From Fistulifera solaris (taxonomy: Eukaryota): a stretch of 64,000 nt of DNA. A model generated the notes under the pieces. It made no database searches, had not been told where the DNA came from, and saw only the letters and a program-made list of their open reading frames with translations. Positions 17,270 to 24,314 of this stretch are shown here, in pieces. The stretch's first letter is position 1, and the number at the start of each line of letters is the position of its first letter. Both the position numbers and the translations under genes were made by a program. The stretch lies in NCBI GenBank assembly GCA_030295235.1, contig AP026140.1:124001-188000 (forward strand), written 5' to 3'.

Positions 17270-18213
17270 TTATTGAGACGCGCACTTATTTCGTTATAAT
17301 CCCAAACACCGTGTCCACATTTTTTGGAATATGCACAGCATTATTTCGTTGATTTCGTTGAAATTGAGCCATAACAATCAATTCAGAACCGTACAGAATA
17401 TCTGTATGATGCAAAACATTTTCCAGATTTTCTGGAACAGGCACTTCTTTCGCTATGATTCACAACACAGTTTTATAAATTTCTGGAACGCGCACTTTCT
17501 TTCGTCGTGATCCCAAACACCGTGTCCACTTTTTGTGGAATATGCATAGCATTTCGTTGAGGTCGAAAAAATTGGTCCAGAAATTCTGGACCAAAACAGA
17601 ATTCTGTATGATGCAAAACATTTTCCAGAGTTTCTGGAACATGCATTTCTTTCGTTATGATTCACAACACAGTTTTATAAATTTCTGGAACGCCCACTTT
17701 CTTTCGTCGTGATCCCAAACACCGTGTCCACTATTTGTGGAATTTGCACAGCATTTCGTTGAGGTCGAAAAAATCGGTCCAGAAATTCTGGACCAAAACA
17801 GAATTTCTGTATGATGCAAAACATTTTCCAGAATTTCTGGAACAGGCACTTCTTTCGCTATGATTCACAACACAGTTTTATAAATTTCTGGAACGCGCAC
17901 TTTCTTTCGTCATGCTCCCAAACACCGTGTCCACTATTTGTGGAATATGCACAGCATTTCGTTAAGGTCGAAAAAATTGGTCCAGAAAATCTGGACTAAA
18001 ACAGAATTTCTGTATGATGCAAATCATTTTCCAGAATTTCTGGAACAGGCACTTCTTTCGCTATGATTCACAACACAGTTTTATAGATTTCTGGAACGCG
18101 CGCTTTCTTTCGTTATGATCCCAAACACCGTGTCCACTTTTTGTGGAATATGCACAGCATTTCGTTAAGGTAGAAAAAATTGGTCCAGAAATTCTGGACC
18201 ACCACAGAATTTC
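17270..18213 (-). repeat. Tandem array, unit about 202-203 bp, about 4.5 copies
   Basis: gattcacaacacag recurs at about 17457, 17659, 17862 and 18065. Contains TCCAGAAATTCTGGA-type palindromes. Confidence 0.95.
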
Positions 18214-18228
18214 TTAATGATGCAGGGT

Positions 18229-18615: not shown

Positions 18616-21600
18616 ATGGTTCGAATTTGCTTGGATGATACAACTTTCGATGATTCGCTCCTCAACAATGCCGAATGGAATGTCATGGAGACACCCAAAC
18701 GGCGCAACATCCTCCGTGAGCATAGCCATGACAAGGAGGAAGACGTAGCCGACGATGAACCTCCTCATCCTTTGGGATTTTTGTCACCCTCCTCGCAAAG
18801 TCGAACTCGTTATTCTATGGAGGAAGACGATGAAGAATCCTTGTTACGCTACAAATTGCGATGGGGATATTTAAATGCCCGCAAGCATCACCAGGATACA
18901 TCACAGTCTACCACATCGCCCGCAACGCAACACTATCCACCGTTGTATTCATATTTAGATGCCGAAACAGCTCCCACTTCGGCATTGTTGCGTTACGATT
19001 ATCAGCAGAAACGCCATCAACAGGATTCCGAAGATCCGATGGAGAAAATTACCATGTTATTGAAAGCATCTTGTGTGATTGTCGATGAAACCACGTTGCT
19101 GTCACCGATTCGACAAATTGCAGCCATTCAACAACAAATGATTCTACCGCAACATGTACAGCAGCAGCGTGATTCTAAAATACAACAACGCGTGGAACGC
19201 TATCGAGCCAAATTTGCGCGCGAGCAGAAGAAGCGGCGCAGGCATTGGCCAGTCTGTTGCAGCGTCAAGAAGCCAAAGCACTCGAGATAGAGGAAGAACA
19301 AAAGCGATCGCAAGAGGAACAGGAGCGACAGCAACAGGCAGAAGAAGACGAAAGAAGGAGTCAGCAAGCAAAAGTGCAAGAGCAAAAGAGGAACAAGCCA
19401 GGGCAGCCCAGGAAGAGGCGAAGCGACAAGAGGAACGACAAAGAGAAGCTTTGATGCAAAAAAGTCAAGAACCCGAGTACGTTGGACGCGCCAGGAAACT
19501 TGTAGCCGAGTTGGTACAGGTAAGAGCATCCGTAGAATCATTTGAAACATCCAAGGCAGTCAGCAAACGGCGACTGGGTGTAAAGAAAATTGCAAATGGA
19601 AAGGTCAATACTTTGACAGAAGATGCAAACAAGGTTCGTAGTGTGGCTGCCGAAGTATCACAAGCTATTTCCGTTGCAAGGGCCGAAGATGCGGAAGCCA
19701 AGCAAAGATATGAGGCACAAGACCCGTCCGTCTCCGTTGAAATGACTCGAGGCAAGCGCTACTTTTTGGATTTTCTATGCAGTAAAGCCATTGTTCGTGC
19801 ACAGGCAGATGGATTCAATGGGTAAGTAGACACGAAATAATTCGAGACGGTCGAGTTTGTCTTGTAACTAAACTTAATTTTGCAGACAACGCGGGGACGG
19901 GTTTCCATTGGCTTGTATGCTGACGCTTGTATCCGTCGACAACAAAGACATCAACCCGATTCTGGCAGCCCATATTTACACTGTATGTCCTGTGGCCATT
20001 CCAGCACTTCCATCCCCCGCGAAAGATGCTTCCGAAGATGAATTCATGGAAAGTCTGGGGATGCTCAGGGAGAAGAATGGAGAATTTGAGACTTTTGAAA
20101 AGTTTCTTTCACGTACAGAGGTAAGTTTCAAATTATTTGTTCGTTCTTATAAAAGCGGCAACTCTCTGACATTGATGTTTACAGGGCATTATATCACTTA
20201 TGGCAGACATAATGTCAGCGCAGCCATCGACACACACGTTAATGGGTGGGAATGAAGGAGCAGTAAAATGGCTGTCTCGATTTTTGAAGTTACTGCCCGA
20301 AGCGCCAACTGCACCCCTCCCACTTCTCACAGCCCCCGTCCTTGATGCATTTTTAGCAGGCGCTGGTCATATGCTGGCAAACATCCACGGGGAACGGTTC
20401 CGACAGTATCTTGACGTTATTTCGAATGATATTCTAAGTCGACTAGATGTTGGGCCGATTGGAAAACCCTCATCAATACGTTTGAAAAAGACAATTGAAG
20501 GAGGATTTGAAAAATTCAAATCAGAACTACCATCCAAAGCTATTGCAGAGCTTTACCTTGCTGGGGGATCTGCAAGTAGCCAAGCATCGCACAGCCCTCC
20601 GAGGCTGTCTGTTTCACAGAAACTTATGGGACATTCTCCTTCTCAGCGACAATCCTCATCTTCATCGTGGGCTTCGCCTTTCGGTCCAGCAAGCGGACAA
20701 TCCTCTCAAAGCTCAAATCCATTTGGAGGCACATCTAGTACCAGTAGCAGCAATAGAGCTTCTCTCGGCGGACTTGGCAGCAACCAATCTCCTTTGGGAT
20801 CCTCGACGAATAGTGTTAATTTACAGAGTCCTTTTGGAGGCCAGTCCAGCAGTAATCAGACCAAGTCGCCTTTTGGACTAGCATCGAATACCAACCAGAG
20901 CCCATTCGGAAGTTCCGCCAACACCAACACCAACCAGTCACCATTTGGAGCACCTAGCTCCCAGCCACCGTTCGCCAGCCCTTTCGGCTCGTCTAGTGGC
21001 AATAACCAATCTACATTTGGAGCGGCTACAAATTCTTTCGGAAATCACCTCTCGCAGCAAGAGTTCGGCATGGAAGAGGATAATGGAGGATCTGCACAAC
21101 AATCAGGCGGAATTTTTGGAGGTTCAGCCACCGCTGCGTCTCCTTTTGGTAGTTCGAGTTCTGCATTTGGCGCTTCCGCAAATGTCACACCATTTGGTCA
21201 ACCGAAAACTGCAAACTCTCCCTTTGGGAATTCGTTTGCTGGGTCATCGCCATTCGGTGGCACAACAGCGGCCCCCTCCATGTCCAACTTGAATTCGAAG
21301 CCCTTTGGCCAGTCATCACCCTTTGGGCAATCGAATTCATCTCCGTTCGGTTCTTCCGGACAATCTGGAGGCGTTTTTGGAGCTGGATCGGCTTCCTCAA
21401 CGCCTTTTGGCTCTACTACGTCATCAAATACCAATCCATTTGGAGCGCCCTCTCAATCTGGGCCTTTTAACAATGCTGGGCCCTTTAACCGACCCACCCA
21501 TCGTAAAGACAATAATGGAGGTAAATCTATTTGCAAATTTTTTGCCCAGGGGCGGTGTCGATTTGGCGACAATTGCCGCTTTTCCCACGACACGGGTGGC

Positions 21601-21722
21601 GGCGGCGGGGAGGAGGCTTTGCTCCAAACAACAATTCTTTCGGCGGAAGTCAGTCGAATGTATTTGGGGGCGGCAACAACTCTTTTCAAGCAAACATGCC
21701 GTTTGGCGGACCGCGTCGATAG
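18616..21722 (+). CDS. GLE1: mRNA export factor GLE1 with a C-terminal FG-repeat region and CCCH zinc finger
   Basis: Coiled-coil, then a Gle1 domain (CPVAIP, FLSRTEGIISLMA, KWLSRFL, LDAFLAGAGHML, GERFRQYL), then many SPFG/TPFG/NPFG repeats and ICKFFAQGRCRFGDNCRFSH. Introns 19822-19885 and 20121-20184. Frameshifts near 19230, 19370 and 21610. Confidence 0.85.
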
Positions 21723-21803
21723 GTATCGAATTAATTAATGACATATTACGGCTACAATACAAAGTCTATTTATACTTTTATCAATATTTGAACACCAGTA
21801 ACG

Positions 21804-24314
21804 CTAAGGCTCACGAACTGGTATAGGTGCAGCAAGCCCGGATAGCTTTTTGAACTGCTGATTAGCTCCGTCGGGATTTTGGATTCCAATCACAGCAATT
21901 TTGATGGTCTTGCCGATGGCTTTACCCAATGAACGTTTCGAAAATTCAAAAAATACGGGGACTTCCTCCTTCTGGGCAAGGTCCAATATTTCTTGCAGTT
22001 TCTCGTCTAATGCACCGTATTCGTCAAGATTGTTGGCCATGACCACCATTCGTACCTTGCGTGCTCGAATTCCACGAGCCACCTCCCGCAACCCCATTAC
22101 GAGACGTCGTTTTGCTTTGGCGTTCTTGTCCTCAGCGGCTCTTTTCTGTAAGCGCATCAATTCGGCCAACATTTCCATCAATAGTGGCTTGACTGTCTCA
22201 TTCTTGGAAAGAATCGCGTAGTGACGAGGTTGTCCGGAGTTTGGTATTTTTGGGACACGCTTACACTCAGCAAATCGTTCGGGAATGCGTTTATCCCCCC
22301 GAAAACATGGGCTCAGTTATGTCGTTCTTCTTGTTGTCACCTAGTTCCACCCCAGAATCATCTAATCCAGAAGCAGCCGTAACCGATACTGTTTGTCCAC
22401 CAATAACCATTCCATGAAATCCTGTCAGGGCCTTTTGTTTCTCTTCCGCGGACGTATAATGAACTAATATTGTCTGCTCTTCAATATTCGCATCCACTTT
22501 CTCCACTACTCCAAATTGTTTGGCCAGTTCCTCAATATCTCCCATACTTTCGTCAAGACAGTCTTCATCTTCCAAGTCTTCCGTCGTCAAGACGTTACGC
22601 AGTACGACTACAAAGTCGTCACTGTGCGATGACGATGGCAACTCGTTGTCCCGTAGCACCTTGGCCAACAATTGATTACCCGATAACGTTACTTGATTTA
22701 GTTGCACGACAATGCGCTTGACGTCGTGCAAATTACCCGTGTATACCAACACCACACGAGGAGGCGATTCCTCTTTTTCAACCCGAAGTGATTCCAAGGG
22801 TCCGTAACTCGTCGCCAGTACACGAATATCATGAACACTTTCCTCCAAACATTCATCATCCTCCAAATCATCATCCGTCAACGCATTCCATAACCCAATT
22901 TCAAGTAGTGTATCCGTTTTCATCGAAGATGCTTGCTTTTCTTGAAAAGCGCGTTCACACTCTAATCGCCAATCGTCCTCCGTTTCGGACAACAAATTGG
23001 ATTTGTCGTCCGACGGCAATAACGCCATCACCTGCAATTCCGCCCCGCCCAAATTGAGTCCATTCCAAGCATGCCGCGCTTCCTCCGCCGACTGCATCGT
23101 TTGAAATTGCACATAGACCGGACTCTCGTCTCGTCGCGGTAACCACACACGCCGCACTGTCCCAATCTTCTCGGCCATTTCCTGAAAGTTCTCACACAAT
23201 TCTTGATACTCATCATCATCGTTGCAGTCATCGTCGGCGGTCAGCCATCCCAACACAGCAAGTGTCGTGAAGGCCGCTTCTTGTTGTGCACTGCCTTGAT
23301 TCTTCTGTCGCCATTGCCGCAATCGTTCTTCTAACACTTTTTTCTTCAACGCCGAAAATTTCTTTCGTCGCGGTCGTATCCTTTGCCGTCCTTTCTGTGT
23401 AACCACCATTTTTCCTTGTTGCATCAGACGTAACAAAGCATGCTCTTGGCCAAGCGGCAAGTCATTGGAATTTGAGTTTGTTGCATTCTTCACATTCACC
23501 GCAGTTTTGGTCGAACTTGTAGCAGTAGGATGCGATTTCTTTGGGTTGGGTGGTGGTATCGGGGCTCTGATTTGCTTATTTGTATCCGATGAAATTAATT
23601 TGGCTTTTGTTCGATTATTGTTGCTATTGTTGTCAAGGGATGGCGGACCGACGGGCTTGAGAGCGGCTATTGTGGTAGGTGTATCTGTGGCAGGCACTCC
23701 GGAAGCGTAAAACGTCGGAGCCGACGCGTTCAACTTGGTGGTGGTGGCGGCTGCTGTAGGTTTTGTGACTACGGAAGGTGCTGTAGTACTATGACTCGAA
23801 GGTGCTTGCAGAGCTGGAAAATCGGTTGCTTTCAATGCACTAAAAGGTTTCGTTACTTGCTTCACCAGCGATGATGGTAATGGTTCATTGAGTGATCGTT
23901 TTTGCTTCTTTTTGACATTCTTCTCCGAAAGAGTACTGTTGTTGCCGCTTTTGTTGTTGTGATTCGGTTTTGTTTGCGACTTTATGTTATCCGTTTGCTT
24001 CTTGTTGTTGTTCTTCGTGTTGTTGTGACAAGCCATTTTCGGATGTTGAGAAGGATTCGTAGGTTTGACATCATCGTTGTTGTTGTGCTTGCTCTCCTGT
24101 GTCGTTGTATTATTGCTCTTACGAAGAAGAACCGGCTTTTGTATTCTCTCATCGGAGCATTTGTGGCGACACGATTCCATCCGCTTCCTTGCGCCCAAGC
24201 GTTCTTGTCTCTGTTGTTAAAATTCGAAACAGTCATGTTCGGTTGTGAATTATTGTGATAACTACTGGAGGACGGCTCTGCGGAAGTCGTCGGTAGTTTC
24301 TGTTGTCGTGACAT
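21804..24314 (-). CDS. SECISBP2: SECIS-binding protein 2 (SBP2)-like with three inserted RRM/UHM domains
   Basis: K-rich motif KKFSALKKKVLEER. LMRLQKRA..KAKRRLVMGLREV and an L7Ae domain at the C-terminus. Frameshifts near 24190 and 22295. Confidence 0.8.

Follow-up and report, generated by a model that had tools for sequence, protein, structure and literature searches.

A window of 64,000 nucleotides (nt) of the Fistulifera solaris genome (positions 124,001 to 188,000 of contig AP026140.1, assembly GCA_030295235.1) was analysed, and all coordinates given below refer to this window. Between 18616 and 21722 on its + strand lies the diatom orthologue of the mRNA-export factor GLE1. In the gene as predicted, the Gle1 domain, a domain of phenylalanine-glycine (FG) repeats and a CCCH zinc finger belong to one polypeptide of about 993 amino acids (aa), and most of the diatom relatives collected for comparison share this fused architecture. 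Taken together, the data are probably best explained by a diatom GLE1 orthologue that continues into a tail resembling the FG nucleoporin NUP42. Derivation of the tail from NUP42 itself, as suggested by sequence searches, is only a lead.

Structure of the GLE1 gene

In a stop-to-stop scan, four open frames that overlap one another were seen on the + strand between 18487 and 21738. Joining of the exons, with an N placed at each of three sites where one base is missing, yielded a single frame of 993 codons followed by a stop codon (21720-21722). The limits 18616 and 21722, which had been proposed in a first-pass annotation made from the letters alone, are therefore the true start and stop of the gene once these three one-base gaps are allowed for. 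Exon 1 (18616..19821) begins with the start codon and runs through the N-terminal region and a coiled coil into the Gle1 C-terminal domain; its N-terminus is similar to the M-x-R-F start of related proteins. Exon 2 (19886..20120) encodes the middle of the Gle1 domain, and exon 3 (20185..21722) the end of this domain, the FG repeats, the finger, a C-terminal motif and the stop codon. The two introns, A (19822..19885) and B (20121..20184), are each 64 nt long and have the form GTAAGT...CAG. Two relatives, designated P0138 and P0139, terminate exactly at the position of intron A (...GFNG). At the site of intron B, P0014, P0025 and P0099, which were predicted by gene callers, include translated intron sequence, while P0006, P0010 and P0023 are seamless.

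The junction between GLE1 and its tail lies within one open frame, 20176-21738 (+, 520 aa from stop to stop), in which the end of the Gle1 domain is followed by the FG repeats and then by the CCCH finger. The first-pass annotation had placed the C-terminal part of Gle1, the repeats and the finger in one frame and had noted that the fusion needs no repair of frameshifts. Both statements are borne out, a single frame spanning the junction.

The GLE1 part of the protein

The Pfam GLE1 family (PF07817) was detected in three pieces, corresponding to profile positions 5-85 (19142-19825), 98-176 (19878-20255) and 170-249 (frame 20176-21738) of 250. The second piece scored 37.1 bits at a cut-off of 24, which means that exon 2 alone lies above the gathering score; the third is weak by itself (E 0.034). 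In full-length relatives, PF07817 is matched over profile positions 3-249 of 250 with 81-84 bits. The profile scan for GLE1 and zf-CCCH that had been suggested along with the first-pass annotation thus recovered both families, PF07817 with the score given above and PF18044 with 44.7 bits.

A profile built from five diatom relatives (A1) was compared with known structures and matched the C-terminal domain chains of human GLE1 (6b4f, 6b4i, 6b4j and 7tbl) with an E value of 7e-11. The alignment with human GLE1 reaches chain residue 310 of 317. The FG tail therefore starts at the point where human GLE1 ends, and the 45 conserved residues past the Pfam domain are ordinary Gle1 and not a Nup42 motif. 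For the three-dimensional structure, the relative P0028 stood in for the window protein. Its AlphaFold2 model has a mean predicted local distance difference test (pLDDT) value of 61.5, with mostly 70-90 in the blocks of the domain. Compared with the PDB, the model gave 13 matches with E <= 0.001 and target template modelling (TM) scores of 0.64-0.78, and the first match other than Gle1 had rank 14. All 13 appear to be Gle1; 11 of them are listed as chains from human, yeast, Chaetomium and Debaryomyces. The helical fold of the Gle1 C-terminal domain is thus predicted to be present.

The C-terminal domain occupies 19484..20562 (residues ~291-607), and both introns fall inside it. It is preceded by a coiled-coil-like region (19201..19483, residues ~196-290), which is rich in E, Q, A and R and 45% charged. 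In the P0028 model, the corresponding region forms a single long helix (244-343), and from this helix and the composition in the window a coiled coil is considered present N-terminal to the C-terminal domain. Residues 1-195 form an N-terminal region of mixed composition containing the motif EPPHPLGF (18757..18780, residues 48-55), which is found in the consensus of A1 and of a further alignment, A2, and is conserved in GLE1 proteins across diatoms. According to the excerpted text of Lin et al. 2018 (PMC5998080), the N-terminus of human Gle1 binds Nup155, and by analogy EPPHPLGF is a candidate pore-anchoring motif.

Compared with human and yeast GLE1 (6b4f, 6b4i, 3rrn, 6b4e), the diatom protein is alike in the Pfam GLE1 domain, in the predicted helical fold, in the coiled coil ahead of the domain and in the boundary of the C-terminal domain. 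Differences were also apparent. Sequence identity to the solved GLE1 chains is only 14-21%, the N-terminal region has its own conserved motif, EPPHPLGF, and about 390 aa of the diatom protein lie beyond the point at which the human chain stops.

The tail of FG repeats, finger and C-terminal motif

These ~390 aa past the Gle1 domain consist of FG repeats, the CCCH finger and an end reading PFGGPRR. The FG-repeat domain (20563..21516, residues 608-925) is about 320 aa long, is built of S/N/T-PFG repeats and contains 22 FG, mostly as SPFG, a form that makes up 11 of all FG in the protein. The spacing between FG is 6-17 residues, apart from two longer gaps. Serine contributes 26% of the residues of this domain, glycine 14.5% and phenylalanine 8.2%, and only 4.7% are charged. 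From this composition about four FG would be predicted in residues 608-925, and the 22 observed are therefore not a product of chance.

The finger (21532..21588, residues 931-949 of 993) has the spacing C-x7-C-x5-C-x3-H. It was recognised by the profile zf-CCCH_4 (PF18044) at an E value of 1.1e-11, its score comparing with a cut-off of 24.6, and zf-CCCH was also above its cut-off. The segment after the finger (21609..21719, residues 956-993) contains three further FG and the terminal motif PFGGPRR (21699-21719), which is kept from centric to pennate diatoms. In a complex prediction, the Gle1 domain of the relative P0075 was combined with its own finger and C-terminal end in the presence of zinc; the score was 0.21, with the mark set at 0.34.

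Conservation of the fused architecture in diatoms

To survey the architecture, relatives were collected from public databases. Used as a query, the Gle1 portion of exon 3 retrieved 32 proteins with 54-94% identity, 27 of which carry CCCH Pfam families. For four of the 32, the name given by JGI is 'GLE1-like protein/CCCH-type zinc finger'. A second search, using the Gle1 region of the full-length protein P0023, gave 122 matches. Where the source names the organism, the matches are from diatoms, with one exception labelled Alexandrium. The genera named are Skeletonema, Thalassiosira, Cyclotella, Cyclostephanos, Stephanodiscus, Ditylum, Attheya, Mediolabrus, Amphora, Nitzschia, Mayamaea, Seminavis and Pseudo-nitzschia, together with an entry of MMETSP0725 whose name is cut to 'Amphip'; further look-ups added Cylindrotheca, Thalassiothrix and Pseudo-nitzschia delicatissima.

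In total, 237 relatives were fetched and scored with a local profile, and 154 of them retain the C-terminal end of Gle1. A tail of at least 60 aa follows in 146 of these 154. Among the 146 long tails, 141 have at least three FG, 133 a CCCH finger, 64 two or more fingers and 79 a PRR terminus. The survey of diatoms that had been suggested with the first-pass annotation thus revealed an architecture conserved across diatom relatives. In named diatom entries, from centric as well as pennate genera, the finger was found in 19 out of 21. Its sequence is nearly invariant over 179 distinct copies and can be written P-C-K-F-F-A-Q-G-x-C-R-x-G-x-N-C-K/R-F-S-H-D/E. The whole architecture is also present in entries labelled MMETSP0725 and MMETSP1423. 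These labels belong to a transcriptome project, and both halves should therefore reside on one mRNA in these relatives.

The 13 long tails without a finger are a mixed group. Several are cut within or before the finger (P0039, P0195, P0051, P0038), P0017 and P0082 have unrelated tails resembling chimeric gene models, and four (P0030, P0109, P0146, P0212) fall into a separate clade. P0238 also belongs to this divergent clade of diatom GLE1 proteins, which might represent either a paralogue or a variant of one lineage; for one member the label reads Thalassiothrix antarctica MMETSP0152. The protein with the Alexandrium label, P0138, comes from a EukProt record for the dinoflagellate Alexandrium tamarense and has N-terminal sequence in common with the diatom protein P0028. 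It may represent contamination of the Alexandrium transcriptome by a diatom.

In a search of the ESM-Atlas with the Gle1 domain, 26 of the 30 nearest named clusters, from plants and fungi, contain GLE1 alone. This is a weak hint that a finger is uncommon on GLE1 outside the diatoms.

Relationship of the tail to NUP42

The Gle1-Nup42 pairing has been worked out in yeast and human cells. In these organisms, as stated in the first-pass annotation, a separate Nup42 docks on Gle1, and the excerpted text of Lin et al. 2018 (PMC5998080) agrees: Nup42 binds the Gle1 C-terminal domain via a C-terminal motif (residues 397-430 in yeast, 379-423 in human), this Gle1-binding motif anchors FG repeats proximal to Gle1, and FG repeats make up most of the remaining Nup42 sequence. 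The tail of the diatom protein is like NUP42, NUPL2 (hCG1), plant CG1 and fission-yeast Amo1 in combining FG repeats of low charge with a CCCH finger. The known partner of NUP42 is Gle1, and it is Gle1 to which the diatom tail is joined. When the tail of P0003 was used to search the ESM-Atlas, the six best named family-sets carried Amo1_N (PF27634), zf-CCCH_4 or zf-CCCH, or NUP42_C (PF27899), in clusters from basidiomycetes, chordates (422 aa), arthropods, plants and ascomycetes.

Several observations weigh against the interpretation of the locus as a GLE1 extended by a NUP42-like tail. The Atlas scores, 0.82-0.85, are below the 0.9 line of the tool. Taken alone, the finger is generic, the best match among solved structures being ZGPAT (E 0.0011). 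The domain order also differs. NUP42 carries its finger at the N-terminal end, before the FG repeats, as the Pfam name Amo1_N also suggests, whereas 67 of the 146 relatives with long tails have only one finger, which follows the FG repeats and lies within the final third of the tail. An additional finger near the Gle1 domain was found in only 16 proteins. A plain head-to-tail fusion of GLE1 and NUP42 therefore does not explain the order. Furthermore, many diatoms (64 of the 146) have two or more fingers as opposed to one in NUP42. A phmmer search of P0003 against all PDB chains detected no NUP42 chain at E <= 10 and hence no Gle1-binding motif, which is a weak test, although the chains 6b4e, 6b4f and 6b4g do contain this motif. 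In the aligned tails of 18 full-length proteins, no conserved hydrophobic block, or other conserved block, was apparent beyond the finger and the C-terminal end. The divergent clade described above has neither a finger nor the long N-terminal region, and Q-S-Y-G / Q-P-F-G repeats are present instead. Regarding the distribution of the fusion, a search with profile A1 gave 665 matches with E <= 0.001, and the best 150 of them, all with E <= 3.4e-41, are diatom-like. Finally, a search for sequencing runs containing the stretch gave five, none of them recorded as RNA. The window was compared with short-read contigs of four of these public runs (X1-X4) from two studies, and these contigs cross both introns ungapped and without joints. 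They must therefore represent DNA, and are silent on splicing and expression.

From these results, an origin of the tail independent of NUP42 has to be considered. The FG repeats could have arisen by local expansion and an unrelated CCCH finger could have been captured, with a normal, motif-bearing NUP42 persisting elsewhere in diatom genomes. The reversed domain order, the best solved finger match being to ZGPAT and to no nucleoporin, the variation in number and position of the fingers between diatoms, the occurrence of a finger-less FG/YG variant and the low Atlas scores would fit such an origin. On the other hand, FG repeats together with a finger of this kind are the signature of the nearest NUP42/Amo1 clusters, the fusion partner is exactly the protein to which NUP42 is known to bind, and the tails show no conserved block besides the finger and the C-terminal end. 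We regard an independent origin as unlikely, but it is the most serious competitor of the NUP42-like interpretation. A homologue search restricted to the finger region gave three candidates only, all of them close GLE1 relatives.

The tail is NUP42-like by composition and by partner, and two features that mark membership in NUP42 were not detected in it. The proposal of the first-pass annotation that two partners in mRNA export have been joined can therefore be kept in part. One conserved polypeptide is present, but its NUP42 origin is a lead resting on Atlas similarities below the line, and the domain order is the reverse of that expected.

Possible function of the fused protein

By analogy to the yeast and human proteins, the FG repeats would capture messenger ribonucleoproteins bound to export receptors beside the helicase activator, near the site of Dbp5/DDX19 activation. 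The finger may contact RNA or protein, and the covalent link would replace docking through the Gle1-binding motif. Localisation at the pore, activation of Dbp5, binding of receptors or RNA and replacement of a separate NUP42 are inferred on the same grounds.

The Gle1-binding motif buries a hydrophobic patch of yeast and human Gle1. A further-reaching possibility is that diatoms possess neither a separate NUP42 nor a Gle1-binding motif, that the chimera constitutes the whole Gle1-Nup42 module, and that the diatom Gle1 domain is stable without the motif needed by human Gle1. This proposal is tentative, and we are slightly more inclined to doubt it than to accept it. If there is indeed no separate NUP42, keeping FG repeats and a finger beside Gle1 would be the essential task of NUP42, and the gene would be a Rosetta-stone fusion confirming the partnership far outside animals and fungi.

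A conserved fusion in a distant lineage would constitute independent evolutionary evidence that Gle1 and Nup42 act as one unit. It would also offer a natural construct for dissecting the contribution of Nup42, be it tethering of FG repeats, the finger or stabilisation of Gle1. In practical terms, inventories of pore proteins in diatoms may score NUP42 as absent when it is part of GLE1.

A Gle1-Nup42 fusion is not described in the portions of the literature searched, which included PMC8421043, PMC6411479, PMC1257468, PMC2951903 and PMC3032688, supplements aside. The sole paper containing both 'Nup42' and 'diatom' is a survey from 2005; in its excerpted text, in which the columns of the table are flattened, Cg1/Nup42 is seemingly tabulated only for metazoa, fungi and plants. 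The proteins themselves are already public. Automatic names given by JGI show both domains, and other public records are named 'mRNA export factor GLE1' or 'hypothetical protein'.

Other products of the locus

Two splice variants of human GLE1 are mentioned in the excerpted text of Lin et al. 2018 (PMC5998080). The diatom locus might likewise give rise to two products, the fusion being accompanied by a GLE1 without tail or by a protein consisting of FG repeats and finger only, generated by alternative polyadenylation or from an internal promoter. Some database proteins, among them P0014 and P0028, do stop just past the Gle1 domain, but they look like truncations of gene models. Since the frame runs on without a break and its register is conserved, and proteins with transcriptome labels cover both halves, a second product is considered improbable, and one fused polypeptide is preferred.

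Frame breaks in the assembly

The reading frame of the gene changes at three positions without intron signals, one base being missing behind 19226 and 19383, both in exon 1, and behind 21606 in exon 3. In exon 1 the frames run 1 -> 3 -> 2. Each contig of X1-X4 that bridges one of these sites has one extra base. At 19225/19226 it is present in X1, in X2 and in two contigs of X3, and at 19383 in X1 and in X4, the latter belonging to the second study; behind 21606, an extra G is found in one contig of X1. X1, in which 0.89 of the sampled words occur, is possibly the source sample itself and therefore not independent of the assembly. Two sites, 19383 (AAAA) and 21606 (GGGG), are located in short runs of a single base.

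Comparison with P0003 led to the same result for the last site. The last 37 residues, which are encoded in the shifted frame, are identical to P0003 at 33 of 37 positions, and the preceding 454 residues, including the FG domain, align to it gapless with 86% identity. All three gaps are filled by contigs of the runs, and the gene is therefore intact in the organism. Errors in the consensus of the assembly, here insertion/deletion errors within coding sequence, are the most likely cause of the frame breaks. That the copy in the window is a decaying pseudogene, as its own frame shifts at ~19226, 19383 and 21606 might indicate, is very improbable, since the frame is restored at each site by every bridging contig from four runs and two studies, short one-base runs are present at two of the three sites, the three corrected frames are free of stop codons, and the last exon aligns to P0003 gapless with 86-89% identity.

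The contigs of X1 also revealed an in-frame insertion of six bases behind 19026 and clusters of substitutions scattered over 19002-22026, suggestive of a second allele or strain.

Neighbouring sequences

About 400 base pairs (bp) upstream of the GLE1 start, a tandem repeat extends from 17278 to 18224. It has a period of 203 and 4.6 copies with 91% matches, and every frame across it yields short repeated open reading frames. Downstream, two convergent genes or frames are located on the - strand. The first, at 21807-22316, belongs to the L7Ae/L30e family (PF01248, E 1.4e-12), and its frame ends about 85 bp from the GLE1 stop codon. The second, at 22294-24216, is an open frame of 641 aa with an RRM domain.

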